Assembly (NCBI RefSeq): GCF_000027125.1
Contig: NC_017626.1
Source of the DNA: Escherichia coli 042
GTDB taxonomy: Bacteria > Pseudomonadota > Gammaproteobacteria > Enterobacterales > Enterobacteriaceae
Strand: one strand, 5' to 3'
DNA: 64,000 nt
Shown: positions 3,859 through 46,248 of the stretch, in pieces
Layout of the letters: every line of letters starts with the position of its first letter
How positions within the stretch are numbered: position 1 is the first letter of the stretch
Made by a program: the position numbers and the translations under genes
The notes under the pieces: generated by a model
What the model was told of the DNA's origin: nothing
Database searches by the model: none
Seen by the model: the letters and a program-made list of their open reading frames with translations, nothing else

Positions 3859-3911
3859 TGGGACCCTTATATGGACCCACCGACTGGGTCCAATAATTTG
3901 AGGGTCCAATA
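3859..3911. promoter_or_regulatory. cluster of GGACCC/GGGTCC motifs immediately upstream of int (possible Int/Xis or autoregulatory sites)
   Basis: tGGGACCC (3859-3866). Inverted pair TGGACCCAccgacTGGGTCCA (3872-3892). Direct repeat GGGTCCAAT at 3886-3894 and 3902-3910, ending 3 nt before the int ATG. Confidence 0.3.
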
Positions 3912-3912
3912 C

Positions 3913-5142
3913 ATGGCAAGGCAGACTAAAAAACTCACAGACACTGAAATCAAAAACACCAAACCAGCAGACAAAGAGATCAATCTCTTCGATGGTGATG
4001 GGCTACTGCTACGAATCGCTCCTTCATCAAAAGGAGGGAAGAAGAACTGGTATCTCAGATATCCAGTGCCAGTAACCAAGAAGCGCACCAAGATGAGCTT
4101 GGGTACCTACCCTCACCTCTCATTAGCAAAGGCAAGAGCTTTGCGTGATGAATACCTGTCGTTACTTGCTAATGGTGTTGACCCTCAAGTCCACATCACT
4201 GAAAAAACTAATGCTCTGAAAGATGCCACGGAGCACACGCTACAAGCAGTTTCTCGAAAGTGGTTAGATGAGAAAATTAAGACTTCTGGCATCTCTCTAG
4301 ACCATGCAGAAGATATCTGGCGCAGCCTCGAAAAAAACATCTTTTCAACTCTGGGTGATGTTCCTATCAAAGAGATCCGCCCCAAAATGCTCAAGCAGCA
4401 TCTTGACCCAATTGAGCAGCGCGGTGTTCTCGAAACTCTACGTCGTATAATTTCCAGACTGAATGAAATCTTTCGCTATGCTGCCACGGAAGAGCTTATA
4501 GAGTTCAATCCTGCCGACAATCTCGCTCAGCGTTTCAGTAAACCTAAGAAGCAAAACATGCCTGCCCTTCCACCTGATGAGCTACCACGCTTCATGGTTG
4601 CTTTATCTAACGCATCTATACGGTTAGAAACCCGTATGCTGATCGAGTGGCAATTGTTGACGTGGGTAAGGCCCGGTGAAGCCGTTCGGGCAAGATGGTG
4701 TGATATTGATGAAGAGAGCAGATTTTGGAATATCCCTTCAGAATTCATGAAAATGAAACGCCCACATAAGGTTCCATTGAGTAAAGAAGCTCTCCGCATT
4801 TTAGAAAACATGCGCCCTATCAGTGGTCATAGAGAATGGGTTTTCCCCAGCATCAAAGCTCCCCTCAGTCATATGCATGAACAAACAGCTAATGCAGCCA
4901 TAATTCGTATGGGGTTTGGCGGAGAGCTTGTTGCTCATGGTATGAGATCTATTGCAAGGACAGCAGCCGAAGAATACGGTAAGTTTAGAACGGAGGTGCT
5001 TGAATCCGCTCTGGCTCATACTAAAAAAGATGAAATAATAGCCGCGTATAACCGTTCGGAATACCTAGTTGAAAGAGAAGAACTAATGAAATGGTGGGGG
5101 GATTATGTCAGCAGCAAAAAATATAAGATGATGGCAGCATAA
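3913..5142 (+). CDS. P4-type tyrosine recombinase/integrase
   Basis: The N-terminus MARQTKKLTDTEIKNTKPADKEINLFDGDGLLLRIAPSSKGGKKNWYLRY is the typical P4/IntA-family arm-binding domain. The C-terminal catalytic region has ...VAHGMRSIARTAAEE... and ...ALAHTKKDEIIAAYNRSEY (R..HxxR..Y pattern). ATG 3913 is preferred over the track start 3871. Confidence 0.9.
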   Translation: MARQTKKLTDTEIKNTKPADKEINLFDGDGLLLRIAPSSKGGKKNWYLRYPVPVTKKRTKMSLGTYPHLSLAKARALRDEYLSLLANGVDPQVHITEKTNALKDATEHTLQAVSRKWLDEKIKTSGISLDHAEDIWRSLEKNIFSTLGDVPIKEIRPKMLKQHLDPIEQRGVLETLRRIISRLNEIFRYAATEELIEFNPADNLAQRFSKPKKQNMPALPPDELPRFMVALSNASIRLETRMLIEWQLLTWVRPGEAVRARWCDIDEESRFWNIPSEFMKMKRPHKVPLSKEALRILENMRPISGHREWVFPSIKAPLSHMHEQTANAAIIRMGFGGELVAHGMRSIARTAAEEYGKFRTEVLESALAHTKKDEIIAAYNRSEYLVEREELMKWWGDYVSSKKYKMMAA

Positions 5143-6835: not shown

Positions 6836-7882
6836 TCATTCCTCAAATCTATATAACGCGCCATCAAGATATTCTTCAACAGTATCTATACCGATCCATC
6901 TTCGGTTCAAACTCTCAGCTACAGCACCGGCAGTCATCGACCCACCAAATGGATCAAGAACTAAATCCCCTTCATCTGTAAGCATTTTAATGAAGAATTC
7001 AGGAAGCTGCATAGGGAAACGCGCAGGATGAATTTTGATACCATTAGCTTTACATTTTTTTGTATAAACGTCATTAGCTGCATTATTACCCATTTTCAAT
7101 ACATCAGACGGTGTTTCATCATCAATAAAATTAGGTGGGATAGACCCTCCATTATGGGTTTTATCAAAAGATTCATTAATATTATGTCCTGATGGTCGAA
7201 CAGTAGTTTTAACACCTTTTGCTGCAAGCCGAAGCATGTCCTTGCTATAAGGACGAAGCACTTTTTTATTACTTGCTTTTGGGTGTGGCCCTTTACTAAA
7301 CCAGAAAACATACTCTACAGAATCCTTCACTCGGACTCGTTTGACTGTAACCCATTGAGCAGGTACAGGCATCTTTGCAGGGTTGTACCAGAAAGTCTCT
7401 TGCGCTAGTCTGAATCCTACTTCCTCAACTAAAGCAATAACTAACTTAAAATGATAGATAGATCTAGTTGGCTCACCGGGATTCCAAGAGCCCCCGATGT
7501 TCAAAACGAAACTGCCATCTTCTGTCAGTATCCTTTTGATTTCTTTCGCAAAATCAACAAACCACTCAACGTAGTCCTTCTGACAGACATTACCATATTC
7601 TTTCTTAAAATGAAGTGCATATGGTGGAGATGTGAAGACTAAGTTAACCGAGTTATCAGGTATTGACTTCATCACGTCTAACGAATCGGCGTGGAAGATC
7701 GAACCCAAGTTAGATTCGTAAAACGGTTCAAACCCGTTGACTAACTTTGTAGTTGAATTTTTCTCTTTTGATGAAAAGTCAAGCGTTTTTTGAATAGTCA
7801 CAACAATAAATCTCGAAATGGGCAATCGGATTGCATTGTTGCGTACATAACACAAGGGATCAAGTACAGATGAACCAACCAC
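6836..7882 (-). CDS. beta-class DNA methyltransferase (N4-cytosine or N6-adenine), type II RM
   Basis: Motif IV VFTSPPY lies near the N-terminus. The AdoMet motif [17 protein letters not shown] lies near the C-terminus, which is the beta-class order. The first codon of the maximal ORF is GTG and the true start is unresolved (no ATG before residue 71). Confidence 0.85.
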
Positions 7883-9204: not shown

Positions 9205-9516
9205 TCACTCCTGCCTCCCAATCATATCCCCAAGAAACCTTTTTCCTCGTAATTTTAATCTTGCTTTATCTTCAATGCTAATATTCGATAATTGTAATAT
9301 CAGTCCTAATATTAACTCCTTATCTACCTCTTCTACTTTACAGCCCATAGCTTTAGCTACCTCAGCACCAAGGATGATCTTCAAGCGTGTCTCTGCGCTC
9401 TTGGATAGAGATTTTTCTTTACTCTTAAGGCGATTCAGACGCATTTGAGCTGATGCTATTTTTTGCTTAATGGTTTTTTCTGATCTCGGCTTTCTACCTT
9501 TATCATCCGTATTCAT
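9205..9516 (-). CDS. TraD-like conjugal transfer / relaxosome accessory protein
   Basis: 103-aa basic protein. ...ETRLKIILGAEVAKAMGCKVEEVDKELILGLILQLSNISIEDKARLKLRGKRFL resembles the small Ti-type TraD family pattern (K-I-x-LG..V.KA.G ... LlG.LL.L). It is divergent from the relaxase gene across an 835-bp hairpin-rich spacer. Confidence 0.5.
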   Translation of the reverse strand: MNTDDKGRKPRSEKTIKQKIASAQMRLNRLKSKEKSLSKSAETRLKIILGAEVAKAMGCKVEEVDKELILGLILQLSNISIEDKARLKLRGKRFLGDMIGRQE

Positions 9517-9621
9517 AATTACTTTTCCTTCTAGTTGTCAAAAACATGGAATACAATTAAAAAAGGAAAAGGTCAAACCATAGGCAGAAGGTTGAATACT
9601 TTTTATTCCAGATTAAATAAC

Positions 9622-9695
9622 GCAGCGCGAGATGATTGTTCAAAACAATCACATTGCTGGAACAGGGTTCATCCCTGTTAATGATAGGATTCATC
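9622..9695 (+). repeat. twin-hairpin element copy R1 (candidate oriT/recombination site)
   Basis: gcagcgcgagaTGATTGTTcaaAACAATCAcattgctggAACAGGGttcatCCCTGTTaatgataggattcatc. It is repeated at 24950-25023, with 3 substitutions plus 1 indel over the 62-63 nt core. Confidence 0.85.
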
Positions 9696-9937
9696 TCAAA
9701 AAATGATGTTTTGGTTTTAAAAATATGATATTAGTAAGCTCAAAATAAAAACATGCAACACATACGAATGCAGTCACTAACATTAATTACCTGATACTCT
9801 CCGCGTTACTTATTTTATTGAATCAATGAAAACAATTTTACCTCTTGCTTTTTGACTCTGATTTCTGGTCTTAACCTGTGAATTGTGCAACACATAAAAG
9901 TATTTATAATTTTCACTATTTATTTTAAATTCTGCTT

Positions 9938-10276
9938 TCCCGCCTTACGGCGAGAGACTAATTTAACTACTTTTGCCCTTACGGGCGTTTTCTAAACACC
10001 AGAATCCAATATTATTATCCTACCTCAACCGTTTATCCGATTCCTACCTTTTTAATTTCACAGTCTGTAAAACTAGAGCTATTATTTAACTATAGAAAAA
10101 CATAAAACATTGTCGTTATTTTTAGCTCCTTTAGGAGATATAAAAATAAAGCAATGCCCACCTATACACTGCTACGCAGTGTGTGGGGTCTACCGACGGT
10201 TGCCTGCCGCAGGCTAACACCGTTTCCTTCGGAAACAAGGTCAACGTCAACACCAGAGTTTTTCTTACGAAAAACT
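9938..10276. other. hairpin-rich region upstream of the relaxase gene (candidate oriT / ssDNA-structure region)
   Basis: CGCCttacGGCG (9941-9952). GCCCttacGGGC (9975-9986). ACACTGCtacGCAGTGT (10166-10182). Nested ACGGT-tGCCTGccgCAGGCtaac-ACCGT (10196-10223). GTTTCCttcGGAAAC (10222-10236). AGTTTTTCttacGAAAAACT (10257-10276). The TTAC loop recurs. Confidence 0.45.
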
Positions 10277-10351
10277 AAAACCAGCTGAGTCGTATTGGAG
10301 ATTTATATTTTGGTTTGATATTTAAATTTATTTTGAGGTTGTTTTTATTAT

Positions 10352-11860
10352 ATGGCTATTTTTCATCTGGATTTTAAAATTGTGAAACGTTCTGAAGGCA
10401 GATCTTCCGTTGCGAAAGCTGCCTATCATGCTCGTACACGTATAACAGATGAAAGAACAGGTGATACCTATGATTATAGTCGCCGTACCGATTTATACGG
10501 ACATTTCATATTAGCACCAATTAATGCTCCAGAACATATCGTGAAAGACTCTACAGCATTGTGGAATGAAGTTGAAAGAGTTGAGCGCCAGAGCAATGGT
10601 CAAACATCCCGTTATTTCGATGTTGCCATACCTGCCGAGTTAAACAATGACGACAAGAAAAGACTTGTCCTTGAGTATTGTCAGAAAAATTTCGTTGATA
10701 AAGGCATGATTGCCGATATCGCTTTCCACGATCTTGATAGCGATAATCCTCATGCTCACGTTATGTTGACATTAAAAACCATAGGCCCTGAAGGTTTTGG
10801 TAAAAAAGAAAGAAGCTGGAACGACAGAAAAATGTCTGTTATATGGCGTGAATCATGGGCATCTATGGCTAACAGCTACCTTGCTGCCGCTGGCTCGTCA
10901 GAACGTATTGACCATCGTTCTCTTCAGGCCCAGCATGAAGAGGCATTAGAAAAAGCGGCGGTAGCTTTAGATAATGAAGAAAAAGCGCTATGGCTTGCTA
11001 AAGCCGCTGAAACAAACCGTCCTCCAATGAAGCGTATCCATAGTGCCAAATGGCGTAGTAAAGCAGCACAAGAGCAAAGAGCAGCAGAACAGGCTGTTCG
11101 TGATGCTGCCAAGCAGGAAGCGGTTGAAGTCTACAAGACTTTCAGCGAACTTGATCTTGAAATCGTCGTTGATGTCAGAAGCTTCACCGTGGCTGCTCTT
11201 GCTGAACCAGAAGAGATTGTATTACCAGAAACGCGCTCCGGCTCTTCTTCTCATGAAGCACAAAGTCCTGTATTGGTAGCGCCTATTCCTCATACTCATG
11301 TGCGTGGAGTTAAATCTTACCGCGATAAAGAAAAAGTGAGTAAAGTTGTCATTAATAATATATCAGAACCAAATGTTGCTGATGCTGACATAAACACTCT
11401 TTGGAAAACATCTCCATCTAAAACCAAAAATATGGCATCCAAAAGTACCGCTGAAAGTGTTAAAAGGAAACAGGCTAATCCGCGTCAGGATAATATCTTT
11501 AAACGCTTTACAACGCTTTTGATCGGTTTCTTCAAAGAGAAATTTATATGGGCTAAGAAGAAACCTGATCCTACCGAGATTGAACATGACAGGCATGTAG
11601 CAGAAAATTACGTCTTTGATGAAGTGCTGGGTGTCTATGTATCACGCGCTGACCATGAACAACGAGCCAGATTCAACGGTGATGATAAAGAGTTCTCTGG
11701 TTACAAGCCAACACCTGATGAGATTAAGCGTTTTCCAAGCCGTCTAGCTAATACAGCACAAACTGATAGAGAGCTCGACTACATGCCTTCGCTCGTGGCT
11801 GATAAGAAATCGTTAGCACCTAAATTGAAACCAAATGCTCCCTATAAAAATAGATTATAA
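10352..11860 (+). CDS. MobA/MobL-family (MOBQ-type) relaxase
   Basis: The N-terminus MAIFHLDFKIVKRSEGRSSVAKAAYHARTRITDERTGDTYDYS carries the catalytic Tyr region. The histidine triad HDLDSDNPHAHVMLT is present. The C-terminal half is low-complexity and no primase or helicase motifs are seen. Confidence 0.88.
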   Translation: MAIFHLDFKIVKRSEGRSSVAKAAYHARTRITDERTGDTYDYSRRTDLYGHFILAPINAPEHIVKDSTALWNEVERVERQSNGQTSRYFDVAIPAELNNDDKKRLVLEYCQKNFVDKGMIADIAFHDLDSDNPHAHVMLTLKTIGPEGFGKKERSWNDRKMSVIWRESWASMANSYLAAAGSSERIDHRSLQAQHEEALEKAAVALDNEEKALWLAKAAETNRPPMKRIHSAKWRSKAAQEQRAAEQAVRDAAKQEAVEVYKTFSELDLEIVVDVRSFTVAALAEPEEIVLPETRSGSSSHEAQSPVLVAPIPHTHVRGVKSYRDKEKVSKVVINNISEPNVADADINTLWKTSPSKTKNMASKSTAESVKRKQANPRQDNIFKRFTTLLIGFFKEKFIWAKKKPDPTEIEHDRHVAENYVFDEVLGVYVSRADHEQRARFNGDDKEFSGYKPTPDEIKRFPSRLANTAQTDRELDYMPSLVADKKSLAPKLKPNAPYKNRL

Positions 11861-13379: not shown

Positions 13380-14030
13380 TTACCAGCTATCATTATTTCG
13401 CTTTTCAATTGCATCACGATAACGCTGTTGTTCCACAACATCCAGATTTGGATCAAATAACACACTTGATCCTTTCACAGCAATATCGGCATCAATCTCT
13501 GATTGGGGAGCATAGGCCTTATAACCATTAGGCTGTGAAGTGGCTGTGCGGATATATGTCCCATAGTGTTTCCCATTCATAGAACAACCGATGTAAGCCA
13601 ACAGGCAGGCAAACAGGAAAAAGAATGTCCATACTGTATTATAGCCGTTAATCGTATATCCACTTCCATTCACATCTGAAAACACGCCATTAAACCTGAC
13701 CGCATAGACAATCAGGAACGATGAAAGGATAACGGTTCTGCTTTTACCAACAGTTAAATGTTTACGCACAAATTTCACTGTTGGTAGTAGAGTGACCATA
13801 AAAAGAGCGATAGCAACACATACCAGCCATATAGGAAACAGTCCATATTTTTGTGTAATGTTCTGCGATACCGTCACCAAGGACAGCACCAAGAAGGCGT
13901 TGAGCAGAAAAAGTCTGACCGCCATCCATACCTTCACGTTCTTTTGCGTCTTACGGAGAAACAGCATCGGAGTCAGTGATGGTATGTTCATCAGCAGACC
14001 GATGATAAGCACCCAATAGATAGAGTTCAT
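13380..14030 (-). CDS. polytopic inner-membrane protein (about 5-6 TM), unknown function
   Basis: 216-aa ORF with several hydrophobic segments (e.g. VLIIGLLMNIPSLTPMLFL, LFLLNAFLVLSLVTV, IWLVCVAIALFMVTLL, VWTFFFLFACLLAYIGC) and a polar C-terminal tail. It starts 17 nt after the preceding gene's stop, so it is the last gene of a 3-gene operon. Confidence 0.7.
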   Translation of the reverse strand: MNSIYWVLIIGLLMNIPSLTPMLFLRKTQKNVKVWMAVRLFLLNAFLVLSLVTVSQNITQKYGLFPIWLVCVAIALFMVTLLPTVKFVRKHLTVGKSRTVILSSFLIVYAVRFNGVFSDVNGSGYTINGYNTVWTFFFLFACLLAYIGCSMNGKHYGTYIRTATSQPNGYKAYAPQSEIDADIAVKGSSVLFDPNLDVVEQQRYRDAIEKRNNDSW

Positions 14031-14046
14031 AGCGTTCTTCCTGTAA

Positions 14047-14601
14047 TTACCGGGCTTGCCAACCGTTATTGATTTTCACCAGAACAATTTTGGCTTCTTC
14101 TGGTTCAGACATCCCTTTCACGCCAGAGAAGGCATTTTTATCAACCCAGCCCGGCACGCCATCCAGTTTCCACGTATAGGTCACTTGCGTCATTTTAACG
14201 CCATTACCCTCACTCGGTTCAGTCCAGCTTTTAACCTCAGCTACGGCACGGTGACCAACACAGGCACCATCTTTACGATCCCAAAACTCAACCTCTTGGC
14301 CTTTGTCTGTTACTTCCAGAACATCTACGCTGCTAAAGCCGTTAGGTTGCTGCGAAACATCAAGCAGTCCCTGATTAGCCAGACCTTTCAAGATTTCATC
14401 ACTGGCACTGTATCCAGCAGAACGATAGCCATGGTTGACCTTAACCGGAAAACCTTTATTGAACGTAAAGTCATTGTCCTGAAGGGAGTAGCAGACCTTA
14501 GATTTTGATATATGCTCGTTTATCGCTTTCTCAAAGTCGCCTTTTTCACCGCAGCCTGATAACAACACGGCAAGTCCTGCAATGACTAAAAATTTACTCA
14601 T
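14047..14601 (-). CDS. lipoprotein, unknown function
   Basis: Signal peptide plus lipobox MSKFLVIAGLAVLLSGC|G. 184 aa. There is a 15-nt gap to the upstream lipoprotein gene. Confidence 0.75.
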   Translation of the reverse strand: MSKFLVIAGLAVLLSGCGEKGDFEKAINEHISKSKVCYSLQDNDFTFNKGFPVKVNHGYRSAGYSASDEILKGLANQGLLDVSQQPNGFSSVDVLEVTDKGQEVEFWDRKDGACVGHRAVAEVKSWTEPSEGNGVKMTQVTYTWKLDGVPGWVDKNAFSGVKGMSEPEEAKIVLVKINNGWQAR

Positions 14602-14615
14602 GGTTCTTATTCCTT

Positions 14616-15194
14616 TTAATGATTGATAGTGCCGTTTCTCAGAACAACCAGACGAACTGGCATATCGGCATTGTTTACTGTGGCGAAGCCACGAACTTCG
14701 AAGTTGTTGACTGTTCCAGTGACACTGACTTTCTGGCCTTTCTTGTAAGTAAGAACCGCATCATCAATACCAGAGTAGTAATCCAGCCAGACCATCCCGC
14801 CGCAGTAGCTTGTATCGGCTGTTTTAAAGAGCAGATAATAATTAGGGGCTGATTTGGGCATTCCCGTCATCATATCGCTGGCACTTCTGCCCTTCGTAAC
14901 CTCAAGAACAGTGGCATTGGTGATAGCGATCCTTTTGCCAGTCCATTTTTTTTCTGCTGCCATCGCATTTTCTTCATAGTCTTTGCAGACAGCACCAAGG
15001 CCAGTAATGGACGTCGCTGGACCACTATCCTGACCGGAAGCTGAAACCCGCAGCGCTTTATCAACGGTGCTGTTCAATGATGCCAGTGAAGAGTTAATTG
15101 CCCCATTAACGCTATTCACGCCTTCGTTGAGTTGCTGGCAGCCAGAAAGAAACACCAGAGAGATCGCCAGTGGTAAGAAGTTATGTCCTTTCAT
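14616..15194 (-). CDS. lipoprotein with C-terminal OB-fold (tRNA_anti-like lipoprotein family) domain
   Basis: Lipobox MKGHNFLPLAISLVFLSGC|Q. The C-terminal region ...WTGKRIAITNATVLEVTK...YYLLFKTADTSYCGGMVWLDYYSGIDDAVLTYKKGQKVSVTGTVNNF resembles the OB-fold putative-lipoprotein pattern as I remember it. Confidence 0.7.
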   Translation of the reverse strand: MKGHNFLPLAISLVFLSGCQQLNEGVNSVNGAINSSLASLNSTVDKALRVSASGQDSGPATSITGLGAVCKDYEENAMAAEKKWTGKRIAITNATVLEVTKGRSASDMMTGMPKSAPNYYLLFKTADTSYCGGMVWLDYYSGIDDAVLTYKKGQKVSVTGTVNNFEVRGFATVNNADMPVRLVVLRNGTINH

Positions 15195-15319
15195 TTATTC
15201 CTCAAGGATTTAGTCAGATTCGTATACCCCAATCCCGGCGCACTGACCTATAGATCAGGAGTTATCGTCTAATCAATTGATAGAATTGAATTATTTTTAG
15301 TGTTCGTCACATCGTTTAA

Positions 15320-15452
15320 ATCGATCGATATAAAACAAATGATAGACTCAGGCTATCATAGATAATATATCGATCGATAATATCAATTAAAAAACCGATC
15401 GATAAATCACTTTCAATCGTTAATGCCTATCAATATAAATTTATCGATCGAT
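15320..15452. promoter_or_regulatory. four ATCGATCGAT-type palindromes in the divergent promoter region (operator array; each contains a Dam GATC site)
   Basis: aATCGATCGATa (15320-15329). TATCGATCGATA (15368-15379). cCGATCGATA (15395-15404). TATCGATCGATt (15442-15452). Centre-to-centre spacing is 49/25/49 bp. An extra IR ATGATAGactcaggCTATCAT lies at 15339-15359. Confidence 0.6.
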
Positions 15453-15529
15453 TTTACAGATCATTTTGCTTGAGTATGTTGGCACTGGCGGCTATGCTGG
15501 GCTGAGATAAAGCAGTAAAACAGAGAGGG

Positions 15530-15985
15530 ATGAGCATGGAAAACAACAACGAGCGAAGCTCTATGGAAATCTTCGAAAAAGATCAAAAAATCGCTTTTGT
15601 TGACTCGTTCAGCGATGCTGCTTTGTCTTACGAATACGAACAGGCGGGCTTCACCATTAATTTAATGCAACGCTCGGTTCTTCTCTTTAACCATAATATA
15701 AAGAAAAACGTAACTGCCAAGCAGTTGCGTAAAAATAATATAAAGAATAACGTAATGTCTTCGACATTGCGTAAAAATATGAACAGCACATTTATATATT
15801 CATATAACAACATCAGGGAAATCAACTACTCGCTGCCTGATTGCAGATCCGATGATGCCGAGAACTGTATTATGATTGATGATGTATTAAATCCAGTCTG
15901 GACGTTCAGGGTTCCATCTCACGCACATTATATTTGCGAGCAATGGGTGGAAGTATTTAATAACCATATTTTCTTTGACCCATAA
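15530..15985 (+). CDS. hypothetical protein
   Basis: 151-aa ORF with SD gagaggg upstream. No family recognised. Confidence 0.55.
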   Translation: MSMENNNERSSMEIFEKDQKIAFVDSFSDAALSYEYEQAGFTINLMQRSVLLFNHNIKKNVTAKQLRKNNIKNNVMSSTLRKNMNSTFIYSYNNIREINYSLPDCRSDDAENCIMIDDVLNPVWTFRVPSHAHYICEQWVEVFNNHIFFDP

Positions 15986-16110: not shown

Positions 16111-16581
16111 ATGTCTGGGAAAAATCCTTTTTGGAATTATGATTATAATGCGGCGCAACGTAATAGAGAAATTGTAGACTCTTACCAACAGGCAAATGAG
16201 GCAAGGCTGGATTCTCAACAGGCGCAGTTTGAAGCGTCTATGGCTAATGACAGGGTTAGCAGAATACAGATGCAGTTGAATAACACAATCAATAGCCATA
16301 AGAAGGTTGTGGCTGATTATGAGCAACGTCTTGAAGAATATAAACAAAATTTCTTTCGTGTAGCTTTACATAAAAACATTCTCTTCAGAACGGTTCGCAG
16401 ACTTCAGGAGGAATGGCCGGATAAAAATGAATTCATCCTTGATGAAATGCAAAGACAAAGAATTTTGTGTAATCAGCAGGACTATAGAGAAAGATGGTGG
16501 AATGCCATAAAAGATAATAATCTTGCTGACGATTATCTTGAGTTTCCATTTCCTAATAGAGAGATAAAAAACAAACCATAA
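16111..16581 (+). CDS. hypothetical protein (coiled-coil rich)
   Basis: 156-aa ORF (MSGKNPFWNYDYNAAQRNREIVDSYQQANEARLDSQQAQFEASM...). No family recognised. Confidence 0.55.
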   Translation: MSGKNPFWNYDYNAAQRNREIVDSYQQANEARLDSQQAQFEASMANDRVSRIQMQLNNTINSHKKVVADYEQRLEEYKQNFFRVALHKNILFRTVRRLQEEWPDKNEFILDEMQRQRILCNQQDYRERWWNAIKDNNLADDYLEFPFPNREIKNKP

Positions 16582-17097: not shown

Positions 17098-17505
17098 ATG
17101 TCTGATGCTTTAAAGATCATCAACAATATTCGTACTCTCCGTGCTCAGGCTCGTGAACTGACACTCGAAACCTTGGAAGAGATGTTAGAAAAACTCACTA
17201 TCGTTGTAGAAGAACGTCGTGAAGAAGAGGCCTCATTTCTAAAACAGCAGGAAGAGAAACAGGCCAAGCTGGAAGCATTCCGTCAGAAGTTGTTGGAAGA
17301 TGGCATAGACCCGGCAGAGTTGCTTTCAACTGTTAGCCCATCTTCTTCCAAGACAGGAGCGAAACGCGCCCCACGTCCAGCTAAGTATAAATATGTTGAT
17401 ACCGATGGTTCGGAAAAGACGTGGACAGGTCAGGGCCGAACTCCTCGTGCTATCGCTGCTGCGCTCGAAGCCGGTAAGACACTGGAAGATTTCGAGATCA
17501 AGTAA
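17098..17505 (+). CDS. H-NS family nucleoid-associated protein (island-encoded full-length paralogue)
   Basis: [44 protein letters not shown]... is the N-terminal oligomerisation domain. The C-terminal DNA-binding motif is [17 protein letters not shown]. 135 aa. It is distinct from the core stpA at 50350-50754. Confidence 0.92.
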
Positions 17506-24235: not shown

Positions 24236-24401
24236 TTCATTATTACCTCTTGTTGTTTTATTTATAATAAATTAAATACCATGCACAAAAAAGATATCAA
24301 GTTTTTTGCATATTTTTTTGCGAAAATATTTTCAAAATCGCAACTATTCCAGTGACGATACTTTAAAGCACTGTCGTTTTTAAGCTAAAAATGACATAGA
24401 A

Positions 24402-24483
24402 ACTGACTGCAAAGTCAGGAAAGCTCACCGTGCAGTCAGGAATACTGACTATAGAGTCAGGAACACTGACTGTACGGTCAGTC
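24402..24483. repeat. iteron array 1: four tandem 20-21 bp units, each an inverted repeat ACTGAC-N5-AGTCAGGA
   Basis: ACTGACtgcaaAGTCAGGAa / gctcaccgtgcAGTCAGGAat / ACTGACtatagAGTCAGGAac / ACTGACtgtacGGTCAGTCgt. Unit starts are at 24402, 24423, 24443 and 24463. Confidence 0.85.
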
Positions 24484-24949
24484 GTATATTTTCGTTCTAA
24501 GCCTTATGCCGTAAGGGCTACAGGCCGGTTTTTTCTTAATTTAATTTTGCAAGAAGTAAGAGATAATACTTAATAGGATTAAAAGAAACCGGGCGATTTT
24601 TATAATCGCCATACAGGGTTTCAATATTTTAAATGATTAGTTTTTTTGAGTGCAATATTTATTTTTATTGCGAAGCATTTCTTTCTATTTCACTAACATC
24701 TTTTTTTTGAAAATCACCACCATCTATGAGCTGAAGCTCATGTGCTGACGCACGGCTACGCCCTAACTCTGAAATATGTATTTTTATCTTGATGAGGTGT
24801 CTTATTAATATTGATAGTAAAAAGAGGAAAGATCTTTTCCAGATCATTTCATCATAAAAAACAAAATTGATCCTATGTTTGAACATAGCATTACCGCAAT
24901 AACATATAGCATTTTCCCTTAAACGAATAGGAAAATTATATTTTCAGTA

Positions 24950-25023
24950 GCAGCACTTAGTGATTGTTCAAGACAATCACATTGCTGGAACAGGGTTCAT
25001 CCCTGTCAATGATGGATTTATCC
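24950..25023 (+). repeat. twin-hairpin element copy R2
   Basis: gcagcacttagTGATTGTTcaagACAATCAcattgctggAACAGGGttcatCCCTGTcaatgatggatttatcc. It has the same orientation as R1 (9622-9695). Confidence 0.85.
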
Positions 25024-25090
25024 ATAAAGAATTGCGGCGATAGCCGCTATGAAATAAAGGAGAAACAATTTCATCTGTACTCATATATAA

Positions 25091-25128
25091 GCAGTGCTAA
25101 GTGATTGTTTAAAACAATCACTTCGCTG
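25091..25128 (+). repeat. partial copy R3 (first hairpin only)
   Basis: gcagtgctaaGTGATTGTTtaaAACAATCACttcgctg. It shares the gcag-N7 leader, the 9-bp-stem hairpin and the CA(c/t)T(t/c)GCTG tail. It lacks the AACAGGG/CCCTGTT hairpin. Confidence 0.7.
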
Positions 25129-25166
25129 TAATAACATTATAGTAAAAATAAAATAGGTAGCACAAG

Positions 25167-25311
25167 GTGCCATTTTCATAAGGCACAAATGAGTTTCATA
25201 GCAAAACGTTTCTGGATAGATCAATTAAGAAATATTTCAATACAATTCATCCTTCATTGCTGAAAACCTCCAACGCCATTCATAAAACAGCAGGTGCCAT
25301 TCAACAGGCAC
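25167..25311. repeat. two copies of a GGTGCC-N8-10-GGCAC inverted repeat
   Basis: aaGGTGCCattttcataaGGCACaaa (about 25165-25190) and caGGTGCCattcaacaGGCACaca (about 25291-25314). Confidence 0.6.
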
Positions 25312-25391
25312 ACATTCCCTTTTACTATATTAAACTTATTACTATATTACAGCTGTTATTTCTCATATAAAACAACATATTACAGAAAAAA

Positions 25392-25485
25392 GGTTATAGG
25401 TTCCTATAACTATGGTTATCGATATCTATAACTCGGATTATAGTTTACTATAACCATAATTAGCAAAAACTATAACTATAGTTCC
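25392..25485. repeat. iteron array 2: about 8 copies of CTATAAC/GTTATAG with roughly 21-23 bp periodicity
   Basis: aGGTTATAGgttcCTATAACtatGGTTATcgatatCTATAACtcggATTATAGtttaCTATAACcataattagcaaaaaCTATAACTATAGtt. Direct copies start at 25404, 25425, 25448 and 25470. The array lies 200-300 bp upstream of the second RepL-like gene. Confidence 0.8.
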
Positions 25486-25692
25486 GCACTGAAACTAATC
25501 TTTAAAACTGGCGAGCATTCCACTCTCAATAAACTTATTCCAGTCACGAATCAATAACGGCTTCAATTTATCCTGTTCTGTGGATGGTTTTCCACTATAT
25601 TAAAACTTTTTCCACTTATTTTTGACTTTGTTATTGACCATAGTGTTTAATCTGTTATGTATTAATAAAAACAATAACAAAAGGAAAATACA

Positions 25693-26391
25693 ATGACACA
25701 AATAGATTTTCAATCTCTTAGCAGTTTATCCCCCTTTCAGCTAACACAGTATATTGATGATCATCTTTTCACTAATGAACAGAAAGTGCAGATATTCGAA
25801 CATTATCACAGCACACATAAAGACACTACCAATATCTATTCGAGAAAAGAAAACATTAAATCTATTAAAAAAGATGTTGATTATGTCCATATGTTCACAA
25901 AAAACTTCCAGCAACTCGCAGAACTTGATATTTCCAAGAATGAGTTGAAGGTTATCGCAAGGATTTTAAACATCATGGAGTTTGGAAACTGCTTTCATAT
26001 ATCGCAAGCAAAGCTATGCCGCGACTTAGATATTAAAAAATCAAATATGTCTCTTGTCTTTAAAAAGCTCAAAAAGAAAGGGATCATTATTGATAAAGAT
26101 GGAGATCTCTTTATGAACTCCAACATATTTCTTAAGGGACAAGCGCATTCTATCAATGCCAAACAACGCCCTAATGTTAAAAAGGCACAGGGATTTAACG
26201 CTAATAATGAACCAGTATTTGATAATGTTTATACATTTAATCAAACAAATGATTCTGACAATCAACCTACAGAAGGAATGACTACATCTGAGCCACCAAA
26301 AACATCTGATAGCTGTTCTAACAAAGAAACAGATCCAGCACTGACGCTGCAGTATCCTAAAACAGAAGAGCCAGCTTATGATGATGTTTAA
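25693..26391 (+). CDS. RepL-like winged-helix protein (candidate replication initiator/regulator) 2
   Basis: 232 aa. ...ISKNELKVIARILNIMEFGNCFHISQAKLCRDLDIKKSNMSLVFKKLKKKGIIIDKDGDLFMNSNIFLKGQA... shows the same wHTH plus 'mNsNif.kG' pattern. It is divergent from RepL-like 1 across 1.46 kb of repeats. Confidence 0.5.
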   Translation: MTQIDFQSLSSLSPFQLTQYIDDHLFTNEQKVQIFEHYHSTHKDTTNIYSRKENIKSIKKDVDYVHMFTKNFQQLAELDISKNELKVIARILNIMEFGNCFHISQAKLCRDLDIKKSNMSLVFKKLKKKGIIIDKDGDLFMNSNIFLKGQAHSINAKQRPNVKKAQGFNANNEPVFDNVYTFNQTNDSDNQPTEGMTTSEPPKTSDSCSNKETDPALTLQYPKTEEPAYDDV

Positions 26392-26422: not shown

Positions 26423-26689
26423 CTACTGCCAGTCAATGAGATCCTCTGGTGATATCCTATCCTTCTCCATCAATTTGAGGATCTTTTTCATTTTTAACTT
26501 ACGTGCCTTTTTCTCACCAATCTCCTGATAGTATTCTTCCCGCCGTTCCGCTACTACCTTGCGGAACTTCTTCAAGAGTTTGTTCAATGTCTTTATATCA
26601 GTGGTAGCCGCTTCAGCTTGGATTTTTCTATACATATACATAACGTGGAATTCATCAATCATATTAAACCTCTTAGTTTTATCATTCAT
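26423..26689 (-). CDS. truncated H-NS family protein (H-NST-like; oligomerisation domain only)
   Basis: 88 aa from ATG 26689 (SD gaGGGAaatcac). ...IKTLNKLLKKFRKVVAERREEYYQEIGEKKARKLKMKKILKLMEKDRISPEDLI parallels H-NS ...[19 protein letters not shown]...LIADGIDPNELL. There is no [12 protein letters not shown]-binding domain. Confidence 0.65.
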   Translation of the reverse strand: MNDKTKRFNMIDEFHVMYMYRKIQAEAATTDIKTLNKLLKKFRKVVAERREEYYQEIGEKKARKLKMKKILKLMEKDRISPEDLIDWQ

Positions 26690-26731
26690 GTGATTTCCCT
26701 CTTTCGAGGGAATACTCATTACATCTAAATA

Positions 26732-28280: not shown

Positions 28281-28499
28281 TTATGCTACTTTATTACGTG
28301 ATAAAGTAATCTTTTCATCAATCCACTTATCTATATCACTCTCTAAGAATGCTATTGCTCTTTCACCAAGTTTTATTGGCGATGGGAATTCATTACGACT
28401 AATCAAACGATAAATCCACGCTTTACATAAACCAGTACGATTTAATACTTCTGGTAAACGAATAAGTCTTTTACTGTTTGATACTACATTAGTATTCAT
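28281..28499 (-). CDS. AlpA-family (MerR-superfamily) phage/island transcriptional regulator or excisionase
   Basis: 72 aa from ATG 28499 (SD gtgAAGGAGataaag). ...KRLIRLPEVLNRTGLCKAWIYRLISRNEFPSPIKLGERAIAFLESDIDKWI is the classic AlpA/Xis HTH pattern. Confidence 0.85.
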   Translation of the reverse strand: MNTNVVSNSKRLIRLPEVLNRTGLCKAWIYRLISRNEFPSPIKLGERAIAFLESDIDKWIDEKITLSRNKVA

Positions 28500-28654
28500 C
28501 TTTATCTCCTTCACGTTGTTCTCGATAGAGATAATTATCGTATTTTTTCTAGGAGCTAACTAGGGGTGTTCAGGCGAGAGATTTTAACGCTAAAGTGAGT
28601 TTTGATGAGTTTCGGGGAAGTTCAACCGGAGTGAAGTTCCCCATTTTTTGCTTT

Positions 28655-30280: not shown

Positions 30281-33200
30281 TTAGAACGACCAGTTCACAC
30301 CAGCTACCGCGTTCCACGGGGATTCCACACCGGCACCATGGCTATACCCCACCCCGAGATGCCCGCTTAATGAACTGCTGAATGAGGCTTTAATACCTGC
30401 CTGGTATATTCCACGTCTGCCCGACAAATCATTGACAAAATTACCGTCATTATTCACTTTCACCCGGTTATCATCGACAAATTCTTTGCGCACAGCCGCC
30501 TTCAGCCACGGCTCAACTTCCATACCGTTCCCCAGACGCATGTTGTAACTCAGCGTTGCGCCCAGTTCACGATATATACTGCGGGTATCGACTGATTTCG
30601 ATTCCATGCCATTGGATAAATGATATTCGGGGTTATCAGCGGTGAACCCCGTTAACGATGCATACGGCGTCAGGTTCCAGTTACCATCGGTAAATCGCAT
30701 CCCGGTTTCAATGTGACCGCCCAGCCCGTTGCTGCGATAACTGCCGTTGGCGGCTCCACCGCTGCTCATTTTACCGGCTACGTTACTTTCAAAACGGTTC
30801 AGCTTCACGATACCGTCCAGATAGAAACCACTTTCATGTTCCCAACTGGCATAGCCGCCCAGAGAATAACTGCCCACACTGCCATGTCCTCCGCGATCAA
30901 AACCGATATGTGAATGGGAATAACCCATAAAAGCGCCCAGCGTGGCAATTCCTTCAGGAATATCATTACGGCTGTCGATCCCCACGGTCATTCCGGTCAG
31001 CGTCTGCTCAAACCCGGCACCCGCATCGGTGGTGACATTATTACGGGTGTTATACGTCGCCCCCCAGACATTATTGTTGTGTGGACTCGCTTTCATTATG
31101 TTCAACCGCTCGCGAATACTGTTTAGCTCAGCATCAAATACCAACGGTAATGTTGCTGCCATATTGAGTACGGCTGCCGTAGAAGGCGTGATGCGTTTCT
31201 CCGGGACGGGTGTCGGCGTTGGATCGGGAGTCGGGTCTGGTTTCGGATCCGGTTTTGGGTCTGGTTTTGGATCCGGTTTCGGATTTGGGTTGGGGTCCGG
31301 GTTGGGTTTGACATCATTGGTCAGGTTCCAGTTGCTGTTGCCGTCGCTTTTCAGGACATACTCATAGGTCCCAAGATCAACGAAACCGCCGGTATTACCC
31401 AGCGTAAACGAAGCATCCCCTCCCCCTGTTTTCACCAGCGTCATCGCGTCGTCAGACTGAGGGCTGACGCCGGTATCCTGAACAAAGATTTTAAAATTAC
31501 CAGTGGCGTTGTTGTTGACGACCAGTTGATCGCCCCGGGAGCCTGCAACGTTGGTATGCAGGTAGAAATTACCGCTGCCGGAAAGTTCACTGGTGGTCAG
31601 CGTATTGTAGATACCGTTAGTTGTGGCAGGCGCTGCTGTTTGTGCTGATAAATAAACATCACCGTCGTTGAGAAGCAAACTGTTTACTCTATATTCGCAG
31701 TTGCTGGTGCCTGCACAGGAATTATTGCTGTTAAGCCAGACACTGCCCCGGCTGGCAGCCGTCAGGTCGGCAAGCGTCGTATCGACGCCATTTCCGATAG
31801 TTAATGTCGCGCTATCGGTAATCCGGACCACCCCTTCAAGTTTAACTGGCGTAACATTATCCCGTGGCGTCATTAACGACAGGCTTCCTGTCGCGCCACT
31901 GACCGATGCATCCGCCAGCGTACCTGCGTAGACGATTGCCGTCCCGCCAGCGATCAGTAGATCTTCTGCCCGGGCCAGAGCCTGAAACTCATCTTTTGAC
32001 CGACCGAGGGTATATTGCCCACCGGAATTAACCTTTGTGGCGAAGTCCTGACCCAGGTTTTGCATTGCCCCACCGTTGCCAACCGTGGAATCGCGAGCTT
32101 CGGTACCTGCTAATACCAATAAATTACCGCCATTTTCCAGCAGCACATTGGTCGCTAAATTTCCGGCAATGGAAAAGGTGCCGTACTGGTGAGTACCGCT
32201 GATTTCAATACCGTTAGCCGTGCTCGTCTGGAGAGCGGCACCGCTGTTCTGGATGATATCTGTCGCTTTGCCATTATCGTTGACTGTCAGCGTACCGCCT
32301 TCATTAATCGTTGTTTTTACTGCCTCACCGTTAGCCGAAACTGTTTGTATTCCGCCGTCGTTAATCGTTGTCTCATTCGCCACCCCCTCGACGATTTGTT
32401 CGCCGCCGGTGAGCGTCGTGCCTGTCGCAGTGGCTTTTGTTTTGACGATCTCCCGCCCGCCCGCATTGACCTGTGTTTTGGCGGAAGTGGTGTCTGACTC
32501 CACGGTTAACACGCCGCCATTTGCCAGCAGGATATTGTTCGCCGCATCCTGCTCAATGCTGAACGCGACGCCATCAGCGCGTGTCCCTGTGACCCGCGTC
32601 GCTCTGGTGGTTGCAACCAACGCGCCCTGGCTACTTTGCTGTATCCCCGTTGCGCTGCCTTTCTCCCGCACATCGAGAGTGCCGCCTTCATTAAGCACCG
32701 AGTTTTCAGCCAGACCGCCCTCATTAACTACCTGTGAACCGCCATTAATAATGGAACCTTCCGCTGTCCCGTTTACCATAATTTGTTGTAGGCCAGAGAC
32801 GATATCGGTATTGATCGCCTTACCATAATTCTGAACGGTTTGCGTACCGCCATTGATGTGCGTTTTGTCTGTTGACCCACCATCAACAATTTGTTCACCA
32901 CTTTCAATATTTGCATCAGTGGCTAAACCATATACCGTTTGCTTGCCACCTTTGATATTTGCTTTTTCAGAAGTGGCACTGGCATATATTGTTTGGGTAC
33001 CAGCACTATTAAGTACAGTACCAACATCTTTTCCATAAACATCCATTTTGCCGTTGGCATTAATAATCGTGTCAACTGCCCGGGAACCAGTGACGACTGT
33101 TAATGAGCCAGCGTTTTCCAGCACTACATTTTTAGCTTCTGAATTCCTGATGTAGAAAACATCACCATAACTGTTGGTTCCTTCGATAAGTGTTCCGGAA

Positions 33201-34855: not shown

Positions 34856-35252
34856 AAATTTCATCCTCTGAAAAGTGAATACTGAGTAGCGTTTAAGCGA
34901 CCTTAGCTTTGCTGCAACATCAGCCCACAGGCACCAGACCAGGGGATTCATCCTGAAGAGACAGCGCAAGTGTATTGTGTTCACCGCTCATCAAAGACAT
35001 CATGATGAAATGATGATATTCCGCATAAGAATGAGGCATTTTTTTAAGACATTGTGCTGAAGGATGATTGGATAAAAAAGTCAATCTTTTCAGGAAATAC
35101 GGCGTATTCTTTTCTTTCGACATTGAAGCCGTCGGAAAAATAAAATGATTTACATAATCGTTTCTGATGAATATCTTCTGCTCACATAAAAATCACACAA
35201 TAACATTGAGATTGCAGATTGTTTTACTTTTACAGCTTTCGTCCCCTCATTG

Positions 35253-44967: not shown

Positions 44968-46248
44968 ATGAGCAGCAATAAAGAGTTAATGCAGCGCCGC
45001 AGTCAGGCGATTCCCCGTGGCGTTGGGCAAATTCACCCCATTTTCGCTGACCGCGCGGAAAACTGCCGGGTGTGGGACGTTGAAGGCCGTGAGTATCTTG
45101 ATTTCGCGGGCGGCATTGCGGTGCTCAATACCGGGCACCTGCATCCGAAAGTGGTTGCGGCGGTGGAAGCGCAGTTGAAAAAGCTGTCGCACACCTGCTT
45201 CCAGGTGCTGGCTTACGAACCGTATCTGGAGCTGTGCGAGATTATGAATCAGAAGGTGCCGGGAGATTTCGCCAAAAAAACGCTGCTGGTTACGACCGGT
45301 TCCGAAGCGGTGGAAAACGCGGTGAAAATCGCCCGCGCCGCCACCAAACGCAGCGGGACCATCGCCTTTAGCGGTGCATATCACGGGCGCACGCATTACA
45401 CGCTGGCGCTGACCGGCAAGGTGAATCCGTACTCTGCGGGCATGGGACTGATGCCTGGGCACGTTTATCGCGCGCTTTATCCTTGCCCGCTGCACGGCAT
45501 CAGTGAAGATGACGCTATCGCCAGCATCCACCGGATCTTTAAAAATGACGCCGCGCCGGAAGATATCGCAGCCATCGTGATTGAGCCCGTTCAGGGCGAA
45601 GGCGGTTTCTACGCCGCGACGCCAGCCTTTATGCAGCGTTTACGCGCTCTGTGTGACGAGCACGGGATCATGCTGATTGCCGATGAAGTGCAGAGCGGCG
45701 CGGGGCGTACCGGCACGCTGTTTGCGATGGAGCAGATGGGCGTTGCGCCGGATCTTACCACCTTTGCGAAATCGATCGCAGGCGGCTTCCCGCTGGCGGG
45801 CGTCACCGGGCGCGCGGAAGTGATGGATGCCGTCGCTCCAGGCGGTCTGGGCGGCACCTATGCCGGTAACCCGATTGCCTGCGTGGCTGCGCTGGAAGTG
45901 TTGAAGGTGTTTGAGCAGGAAAATCTGCTGCAAAAAGCCAACGATCTGGGGCAGAAGTTGAAAGACGGATTGCTGGCGATAGCCGAAAAACACCCGGAGA
46001 TCGGCGATGTACGCGGGCTGGGAGCGATGATTGCCATCGAGCTGTTTGAAGATGGCGATCACAGCAAACCGGACGCCAAACTCACCGCCGAGATCGTGGC
46101 GCGTGCTCGCGATAAAGGCCTGATTCTTCTCTCCTGCGGCCCGTATTACAACGTGCTGCGCATCCTTGTACCGCTCACCATTGAAGACGCTCAGATCCGT
46201 CAGGGTCTGGAGATCATCAGCCAGTGTTTTGATGAGGCGAAGCAGTAG
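44968..46248 (+). CDS. gabT: 4-aminobutyrate aminotransferase GabT
   Basis: 426 aa, class III PLP aminotransferase (…LIADEVQSGAGRTGTLFAMEQMGVAPDLTTFAKSIAGG…). Synteny supports the call. Confidence 0.96.
   Translation: MSSNKELMQRRSQAIPRGVGQIHPIFADRAENCRVWDVEGREYLDFAGGIAVLNTGHLHPKVVAAVEAQLKKLSHTCFQVLAYEPYLELCEIMNQKVPGDFAKKTLLVTTGSEAVENAVKIARAATKRSGTIAFSGAYHGRTHYTLALTGKVNPYSAGMGLMPGHVYRALYPCPLHGISEDDAIASIHRIFKNDAAPEDIAAIVIEPVQGEGGFYAATPAFMQRLRALCDEHGIMLIADEVQSGAGRTGTLFAMEQMGVAPDLTTFAKSIAGGFPLAGVTGRAEVMDAVAPGGLGGTYAGNPIACVAALEVLKVFEQENLLQKANDLGQKLKDGLLAIAEKHPEIGDVRGLGAMIAIELFEDGDHSKPDAKLTAEIVARARDKGLILLSCGPYYNVLRILVPLTIEDAQIRQGLEIISQCFDEAKQ

Follow-up and report, generated by a model that had tools for sequence, protein, structure and literature searches.

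The window, by which we mean the whole 64-kb stretch of Escherichia coli chromosome analysed here (coordinates count from its first letter), contains a 335-bp spacer at 15195–15529. It is flanked by a minus-strand lipoprotein open reading frame (ORF) with its ATG at 15194 and by a plus-strand ORF that begins at 15530, as an earlier note on this DNA had described. That note proposed the spacer as a Dam-dependent epigenetic switch, because palindromes and Dam sites (GATC) cluster in it. Sequence reading and a pattern search located exact copies of ATCGATCGAT at 15320–15329, 15369–15378 and 15443–15452, and a fourth copy, ACCGATCGAT, matches at 9 of 10 positions at 15394–15403. The start-to-start spacing of 49/25/49 is as originally reported, although three of the starts (15368, 15395 and 15442) had each been placed one base off. 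No other copy of ATCGATCGAT with up to one mismatch is present elsewhere in the 64-kb window, for which base composition predicts about 0.07 exact copies. GATC occurs at 15253, 15323, 15372, 15397, 15446 and 15459, and these six sites in 210 bp of spacer-region DNA (34% G+C) do form the tightest such cluster of the window. The next non-overlapping clusters span at least 273 bp, the tightest of them lying on the core chromosome at 45943–46215. Both further inverted repeats, ATGATAG-N7-CTATCAT (15339–15359) and TCAATT-N5-AATTGA (15273–15289), are present as first described. Literature searches with the palindrome sequence and with CGATCTTTT returned primers and oligonucleotides only.

In a nine-lineage alignment, the conserved block starts at about 15270 and stops at 15462, and the flanks are lineage-specific. 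Together with blastn, this alignment defines a regulatory module of ~200 bp (15270–15462), which extends from the block TAATCAATTGATAG through the fifth conserved GATC. The spacer was recovered by megablast from 79 E. coli genomes, and the module core by blastn in distant mode from 640 of the 5426 complete genomes of this species (~12%). The 563 distant E. coli copies are 72–78% identical and mainly align to positions 76–262 of the 280-position query, which correspond to ~15270–15474 of the window; their carriers include Nissle 1917, the enteropathogenic strain E2348/69 and O111:H8. In Nissle 1917 (NZ_CP007799.1), the five conserved GATC are located at about 2182060–2182198. Near-identical copies of the module occur in Enterobacter, Kluyvera and Salmonella, and plasmid records of Yersinia and Klebsiella contain the core as well, in segments that resemble islands. 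A scan with the family of the 151-aa ORF at 15530 gave four loci only, and diversity was sampled through the distant mode of blastn. The 18 loci that were read span six genera (E. coli, Salmonella, Klebsiella, Enterobacter, Kluyvera and Yersinia). The module is part of ROD21-like (EARL) islands and belongs to this island family, not to a single strain.

Across the 18 loci, the five GATC sites are spaced 49–50/23–25/49–50/13, and 89 of their 90 instances are kept within surrounding sequence that is only ~75% identical among loci. GATC1 (15323–15326, within the palindrome at 15320–15329), GATC3 (15397–15400, within the 9/10 palindrome at 15394–15403) and GATC4 (15446–15449, within the palindrome at 15443–15452) are retained at all 18 loci, as is GATC5 (15459–15462), which is each time located 13 bp past GATC4. 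GATC2 (15372–15375, within the palindrome at 15369–15378) is retained at 17 and has been lost, as CGATTG, in L016 alone (L numbers denote individual loci). The sixth GATC of the spacer (15253–15256) lies outside the conserved module and is missing at that position in L009 and L012–L016. In distant lineages the palindromes have decayed: site 1 becomes AACGATCAAA, site 3 ACCGATCAAT and site 4 ATCGATCTTT. The 10-bp palindrome, first taken as the key unit, is thus a lineage-specific elaboration, which arose in the window lineage as ATCG/CGAT arms extended around GATC; the conserved elements are the GATC sites and the 15-bp OxyR-type half-sites described below. In L017 (E. coli KFu023, with the island at tRNA-Thr; 4663–4950), the module is fully kept with a GATC spacing of 50/23/50, the SEN1982-family gene is just 95 aa long, and a different relaxase and a mobilization protein are encoded.

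The decay of the palindromes bears on a second proposal, that they are target or control sites of the island restriction-modification (RM) system. Each palindrome includes PvuI/ClaI-like sequences (CGATCG and ATCGAT), and an N6/N4 DNA methylase is encoded at 6836–7882. However, distant lineages keep GATC but no longer have CGATCG/ATCGAT at sites 1, 3 and 4. In strain 4/1-1, with a 99.4% identical region, an ABC-three-component system replaces the RM genes, and the islands of Nissle, E2348/69, Yersinia and Klebsiella carry other cargo. The site loss and the gene content of strain 4/1-1 contradict the RM link, to which we assign almost no probability.

The TGATAG-N7-CTATCA block combines invariant arms with a free spacer, and sites were therefore scored as OxyR half-sites, with the score being the number of matches to the 10-position OxyR consensus ATAGnTnnnAnCTAT (quoted in PMC2909390 and PMC4856963). 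Sites of at least 8/10 number 42 in the 64 kb, five of which are located within the spacer (starts at 15280, 15311, 15342, 15373 and 15416). A sixth spacer site at 15447 scores 7/10, and the start spacings are 31/31/31/43/31. H0 (15280–15294; ATAGAATTGAATTAT, 8/10) is without GATC; eight of the nine aligned lineages retain its left arm ATAG, and its right arm is less conserved (TTAT/TTCT/TTTA). H1 (15311–15325; ATCGTTTAAATCGAT, 8/10) has arms that are invariant in 9/9 lineages, and its right arm, CGAT followed by C, holds GATC1. H2 (15342–15356; ATAGACTCAGGCTAT, 8/10) is GATC-free with perfect arms, which are invariant in 9/9 lineages around a 7-nt spacer with a majority fraction of 0.54; it scores 10/10 in L004, L006, L009, L013, L014, L016, L017, L019–L021 and L023. 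H3 (15373–15387; ATCGATAATATCAAT, 8/10) holds GATC2 in its left arm, ATCG preceded by G. H4 (15416–15430; ATCGTTAATGCCTAT, 8/10 and 9–10/10 in relatives) is GATC-free, and its left arm is ATAG in L015, L022 and L023, toward the OxyR consensus. H5 (15447–15461; ATCGATTTTACAGAT, 7/10) holds GATC4 and GATC5 in its two arms. It retains both GATC in every lineage and stays at 7–8/10, while its better arm swaps sides (ATCG..AGAT vs ATCT..CGAT). H2 to H5 correspond to the sites OBSA, OBSB, OBSC and OBSD of the Salmonella opvAB switch. In addition, a weak candidate H3' (15385–15399, 5/10) would hold GATC3 in its right arm, again CGAT followed by C, and lies exactly 31 bp before H4.

In 5000 shuffles of the spacer that preserved dinucleotides, the number of sites of at least 8/10 averaged 0.52 and never reached five, and a shuffled 26-kb island gave 0.01 chains of at least four half-sites. 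Chains of at least three half-sites 30–33 bp apart were found a single time in each related locus, and the rest of the 314 kb contained none. The six half-sites hold identical relative positions in every lineage, with a spacing of 31–32 in relatives for H0–H3 and for H4–H5, and the arms of H1–H4 show a conservation of 0.97–1.00 vs 0.54–0.79 for the spacers (9 lineages). All nine lineages have T6 and A10 in H1, H3 and H5, and both H2 and H4 score up to 10/10 in several relatives. The GATC-free half-sites H0, H2 and H4 are the nearest to the consensus; GATC1, 2, 4 and 5 fall in the arms of H1, H3 and H5, and GATC3 is located 24.5 bp from the centre of H4. The GATC-bearing arms remain sub-optimal (ATCG/CGAT, not ATAG/CTAT) in all lineages. 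Under the same scoring, the established agn43 operator reaches 7–8/10.

On the basis of this sequence organisation, we consider the spacer to be probably an OxyR/Dam epigenetic phase-variation switch of the opvAB/gtr/agn43 kind. OxyR, a LysR-type protein of the host, is the most likely regulator at the predicted half-sites; the occurrence of the module in six genera, independent of the island cargo and of the right-hand gene, fits such a ubiquitous host regulator. Each 15-bp site would bind one OxyR dimer, and the sites lie in two blocks, H0–H3 and H4–H5. Their 31-bp phasing is near the 32-bp interval that accommodates a tetramer of reduced OxyR in gtr and opvAB. The geometry permits alternative pairs, with H2 common to H1 and H3, and H4 common to H3' (5/10 only) and H5. 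A tetramer could thus occupy H1+H2 or H2+H3 and, likewise, H3'+H4 or H4+H5. The occupied pair would shield its own GATC from Dam, and the exposed GATC of the alternative half-site would become methylated and then block OxyR there. This pattern would tend to re-establish itself after replication and produce two inherited states, one with GATC1 and 3 unmethylated and GATC2, 4 and 5 methylated, and the other with the reverse. The state would set expression, as H5 abuts or overlaps the candidate rightward promoter and H0/H1 lie beside the presumed leftward promoter. The predicted targets are the leftward envelope lipoprotein operon and, where present, the rightward DUF4755-like gene.

Candidate promoters were identified on the rightward side. 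The consensus scan yielded the sigma-70 candidate TTTACA-16-TATGTT (15453–15480, +), which overlaps H5; its assignment is uncertain because the Salmonella lineage L009 has lost the -10. An alternative recognised by reading, TTGAGT-17-TATGCT (15470–15498, +), matches at 8/12 positions and keeps both hexamers in L009. Promoter scans of three lineages returned no conserved promoter in either direction.

A bolder form of the OxyR/Dam proposal is a bidirectional toggle, in which the mirror-symmetric H1-H2-H3 core is common to the divergent promoters and the methylation states reverse both reciprocally. State A would have OxyR on H1+H2 and H3'+H4 with GATC1 and 3 unmethylated, and state B would have OxyR on H2+H3 and H4+H5 with both gene directions reversed. 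If this were true, island carriers would fall into two lineages whose surface or island-function programmes are reciprocal. We regard this extension as speculative, with a small though appreciable chance of being correct.

Several points weigh against an OxyR/Dam switch. The half-site score derives from a 10-position consensus rather than from a calibrated matrix, and scores of this kind are inflated in AT-rich DNA. The half-site spacing is 31 and not 32 bp, and 43 and not 41 bp. The placement of GATC3 in a half-site is conjectural, as H3' scores just 5/10, and this is the weakest part of the model. The sole rightward candidate of the scan is weak with a non-conserved -10, and no leftward promoter passed in the consensus scans. 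The BLAST similarity to opvAB fragments, which are described below, is moderate and not significant versus the whole window. A literature search for methylome, chromatin immunoprecipitation or OxyR data on the locus found none. Finally, ATCG arms also occur where no GATC results (the left arms of H1 and H4), and the arms could reflect another LysR-type protein that prefers ATCG-N7-CGAT.

This last point leads to the rival explanation in which the half-sites are operators for another regulator (HdfR, LeuO or an island protein), with incidental GATC and no heritable methylation; a dimer that binds ATCG-N7-CGAT or ATCGATCGAT would be one form of it. The T-N11-A dyad is common among LysR-type regulators, several arms read ATCG and not the ATAG of OxyR, the perfect 10-bp palindromes of the window lineage would suit a small dimeric repressor, and many island ORFs are without a known family. 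Against this, it is the GATC and the 15-bp half-sites that are conserved and not the palindrome, and H2 and H4 reach the full OxyR consensus of 10/10, including T6 and A10, in many lineages. The GATC-to-site offsets equal those of opvAB to the base pair, and the agn43 operator is near-identical to H1 and H5. Furthermore, no island gene except the lipoprotein is linked to the module in all lineages, and no LysR-family gene was detected among the scanned island ORFs. Another regulator is therefore unlikely in our assessment, yet it is the alternative that we take most seriously.

The AT-rich DNA of the module also resembles a target of H-NS, and the earlier note had named the island H-NS proteins as candidate regulators. 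A full-length H-NS paralogue is encoded at 17098–17505 (+), ~1.6 kb downstream on the same strand. Elsewhere on the island, the gene at 26423–26719 (-) encodes only the N-terminal oligomerisation domain, a protein that we take to resemble the truncated H-NST antagonists. In this rival, the spacer would be a high-affinity H-NS nucleation cluster that silences the divergent promoters and is read by host and island H-NS. With the motif tCGATAAATT (PMC2094087), an exact consensus match TCGATAAATT was identified at 15438–15447 (-), a proV-type high-affinity TCGATATATT at 15364–15373 (-), and the one-mismatch sites TCGATAAATC and TCGTTTAAAT at 15399 and 15312, respectively. Of the 33 matches with up to one mismatch in the 64 kb, these four fall within 136 bp of 34% G+C DNA. 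A second exact TCGATAAATT and a second proV-type TCGATATATT were observed in the core chromosome near the right end of the window, at 63683–63692 and 59014–59023. As in the proU negative regulatory element (NRE), an exact consensus and a proV-type 10-mer are both found in the window lineage, but these motifs are not conserved across the module lineages. L015 and L016 have a single match each and L012, L013, L014 and L017 have none, and the module is kept in all six. The motifs also leave the invariant GATC, the 31-bp phasing and the arm/spacer conservation unexplained. H-NS nucleation was rejected as the primary function, as its motifs are not kept in distant lineages, and such a role is improbable; for the same reason, the island H-NS proteins are unlikely to be the regulators. 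H-NS probably binds the AT-rich module DNA as an ancillary factor, which is compatible with an OxyR/Dam switch, as an accessory layer at most.

A cis-acting DNA function, such as a replication origin under GATC/SeqA control, an oriT or a hairpin formed in single-stranded DNA after transfer, was also considered. This alternative is in keeping with GATC clustered in AT-rich DNA, with a RepL/SEN1990-like gene located ~1.1–1.5 kb rightward in compact relatives, and with the folding of the window copy as single-stranded DNA (z = -4.7 to -5.7). However, the hairpins vary by lineage and fold no better than shuffles in L013 (z = -0.7) and L015 (z = -1.7), and a single-strand hairpin or cruciform was rejected because of these inconsistent folds. 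An oriT is disfavoured, as the module is kept with two relaxase types, MobQ and the different relaxase of L017. The 835-bp divergent spacer between TraD and the MobQ relaxase (9517–10351) is, by analogy with other MobQ/TraD systems, the likelier oriT of the island. With respect to an origin, the distance to the RepL-like gene varies from 1 to 10 kb, and deletion of SEN1990 is reported to have no effect on the replication or maintenance of excised ROD21 (PMC10655114). An Rfam search of the region returned no family and only two chance-level microRNA matches. A cis-acting site as the function of the module is thus very improbable. In the window, the RepL/SEN1990-like ORF, a weak winged helix-turn-helix candidate, is located at 25693–26391. 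The 1.46 kb upstream of it (24236–25692), which has no ORF of at least 60 aa save one of 73 aa, fits the 'long intergenic non-coding region' of SEN1990 homologues.

On the left side of the module, an operon at 13380–15194 (-) encodes a 192-aa lipoprotein, a 184-aa SEN1982-family lipoprotein and a 216-aa polytopic membrane protein. The translations contain LSGC lipoboxes in the two lipoproteins and membrane spans in the third product. The 184-aa ORF (14047–14601) is named 'SEN1982 family lipoprotein' in RefSeq, and this family is the only one that adjoins the module in 10/10 compared loci. S. Enteritidis is reported to require several ROD21 genes, the SEN1982-family lipoprotein gene among them, to colonise organs (PMC6968874). 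On the right side, the 151-aa ORF (15530–15985, +) is a remote DUF4755 homologue (pairwise E = 2e-14), whose family adjoins the module in 6/10 compared loci; the other loci have a different gene, or ~1 kb of gene-free DNA followed by the RepL-like gene. Many of its homologues start at Met12 and carry indels in the Lys/Asn-rich repeat NIKKNVTAKQLRKNNIK. The 151-aa ORF had initially been suggested as a regulator; it was rejected in this role, which is unlikely for a remote DUF4755 homologue whose family is absent beside the module in 4/10 loci. Pfam and NCBIfam scans detected no DNA-binding regulator in this ORF or its neighbours. For the 156-aa ORF at 16111–16581 (+), a match to the nucleotide-modification-associated domain Nmad5 stayed below threshold (E = 4e-4; 21 bits vs a cutoff of 27).

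The island that carries the module is inserted beside ssrA/smpB, and its RefSeq SEN1982-family name places it among the ROD21-like excisable islands. It has the features of this family (PMC6035254, PMC10655114): a position adjacent to the transfer-messenger RNA gene, a P4-type integrase (3871–5142, adjoining ssrA), an AlpA-type protein (recombination directionality factor; 28281–28514), the MobQ relaxase (10352–11860), TraD (9205–9516) and the H-NS homologues. TraW-like and DotA/TraY genes are also carried. The island helix-turn-helix proteins (AlpA and the weak RepL-like candidate) were rejected as regulators of the module, to which they have no positional linkage. Just past the island, a gene at 30281–34984 (-) encodes an autotransporter adhesin of the AIDA/pertactin type (1567 aa). 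In NZ_OZ547150.1, the closest E. coli record, glaH directly follows the island and the adhesin is missing there, and the window thus departs from this record beyond ~30 kb.

If true, the proposal would add a fourth OxyR/Dam switch and the first on a family of excisable, mobilisable pathogenicity islands. A literature search that did not cover all journals found no paper linking OxyR or Dam with ROD21/EARL islands or SEN1982-family genes, and as far as this search reached the candidate switch is unreported. Heritable heterogeneous expression could then affect virulence studies as well as bulk quantitative PCR and RNA sequencing of island genes, and interactions with phages or in conjugation might also be affected. 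The natural variants differ in half-site scores (8 to 10), in the linker (23–25 bp) and in the better arm of H5, and would constitute a ready mutational series for site strength versus switching bias.

To our knowledge, only agn43, gtr and opvAB are well-characterised OxyR/Dam switches, and all three control surface structures and lie on horizontally acquired DNA. The earlier note had invoked the pap and agn43 systems together as models of a Dam-dependent ON/OFF switch. Like the proposed module, the pap-type Lrp/Dam system establishes heritable states in a divergent region through competition between Dam and a protein at GATC. In pap, two GATC sites ~102 bp apart lie inside Lrp sites, and the local regulators PapI and PapB participate. 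None of the conserved GATC distances of the module (49, 25, 49, 13, 74, 74, 123 etc.) is near 102, and no PapB/PapI-like Pfam family was found in the neighbouring ORFs. The pap/Lrp-type layout is consequently not supported, whereas comparison strongly supports the agn43 type, through the opvAB-like geometry and a 19/20 match to the agn43 operator.

The agn43 (flu) operator sequence was read from K-12 MG1655, and its best match in the whole window is 15311–15330. The operator is nearly identical to H1 and H5: its half-site ATCGTTTATATCGAT is 14/15 identical to H1 (ATCGTTTAAATCGAT), its TTATCGATCGTTTATATCGATCG is 22/23 identical to L013, and the operator matches L015 at 27/29 positions. The agn43 half-sites are 32 bp apart, and the GATC-II/III pair has the 13-bp distance of GATC4 and GATC5. 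In contrast to the module, agn43 has a single OxyR site, located downstream of the promoter, with three GATC and no alternative binding configuration. OxyR acts there by repression only (PMC3764049).

The gtr switch of phage P22/Salmonella contains three half-sites spaced for reduced OxyR (~32 bp judged from the GATC positions), with GATC pairs 13 bp apart inside half-sites and an inner GATC distance of 51 bp (PMC2909390), compared with 49–50 bp in the module. A central GATC-free site is shared between alternative pairs in both systems (A-B-C in gtr; H1-H2-H3 and H3'-H4-H5 here), and the promoter-side half-site of gtr carries a 13-bp GATC pair, as H5 does. However, gtr has two GATC per outer half-site and a single triplet, whereas the module has two triplets that overlap, with a single GATC in each of H1, H3 and H3' and a pair in H5. 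A search of a phage collection for a homologous cassette, such as the gtr cassette of P22, gave chance-level matches only.

The closest correspondence is to opvAB (STM2209–STM2208) of Salmonella. Its GATC centres at -172.5, -122.5, -99.5 and -49.5 form a 'symmetrical' 50/23/50 arrangement, and its OxyR half-site centres at -148, -116, -75 and -43 (32/41/32) score 10, 8, 10 and 7 (PMC4856963). In the module, GATC1–4 are centred at 15324.5, 15373.5, 15398.5 and 15447.5 (49/25/49) and H2–H5 at 15349, 15380, 15423 and 15454 (31/43/31). The GATC spacing is exactly that of opvAB in L017, and the half-site scores 10, 8, 10 and 7 recur in L023. The GATC-to-half-site offsets of +24.5, +6.5, +24.5 and +6.5 are identical in the two systems; the GATC centre of H3, for example, is 6.5 bp upstream of the half-site centre, the same as for GATC2 and OBSB. 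In both, strong GATC-free sites alternate with weaker GATC-bearing ones, and the DNA is AT-rich and horizontally acquired, with a cell-envelope function as the target, known in opvAB and predicted for the module. In opvAB, OBSD directly precedes the -35; perfecting OBSB or OBSD would destroy GATC, and improving them in part fixes the switch in the ON state (PMC4856963). GTGAAT abuts OBSD in opvAB, and GTGACG likewise abuts H1 on the minus strand. Fragments of opvAB rebuilt from mutagenic oligonucleotides (Table S1 of PMC3350482) have CGTCACAT...CGATC-N12-ATGATAG in common with the window and align at homologous positions (28/42 and 33/41), and a common ancestry of the module and opvAB is plausible on this evidence. 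The opvAB 15-mer that ends in the CGAT of GATC1 (TAAAACAAAAACGAT) scores 5/10, the same as H3'. A weak extra half-site with GATC1 and GATC3 could explain how opvAB GATC are protected 'outside' OBSA and OBSC in the published model. By analogy, such a site may clarify the opvAB model where it is still unsettled, and a weak upstream half-site would make opvAB a pair of gtr-like triplets. The module differs from opvAB in its divergent setting, with the universally linked operon opposite the side of the opvAB-equivalent promoter, and in its adjoining lipoprotein genes, whereas opvAB controls O-antigen chain-length proteins. Its two additional half-sites (H0 and H1), its fifth GATC and its divergent genes are, as predicted from sequence, features beyond those of the known OxyR/Dam switches, and whereas opvAB is one Salmonella locus, the module resides on mobilisable islands of many genera.

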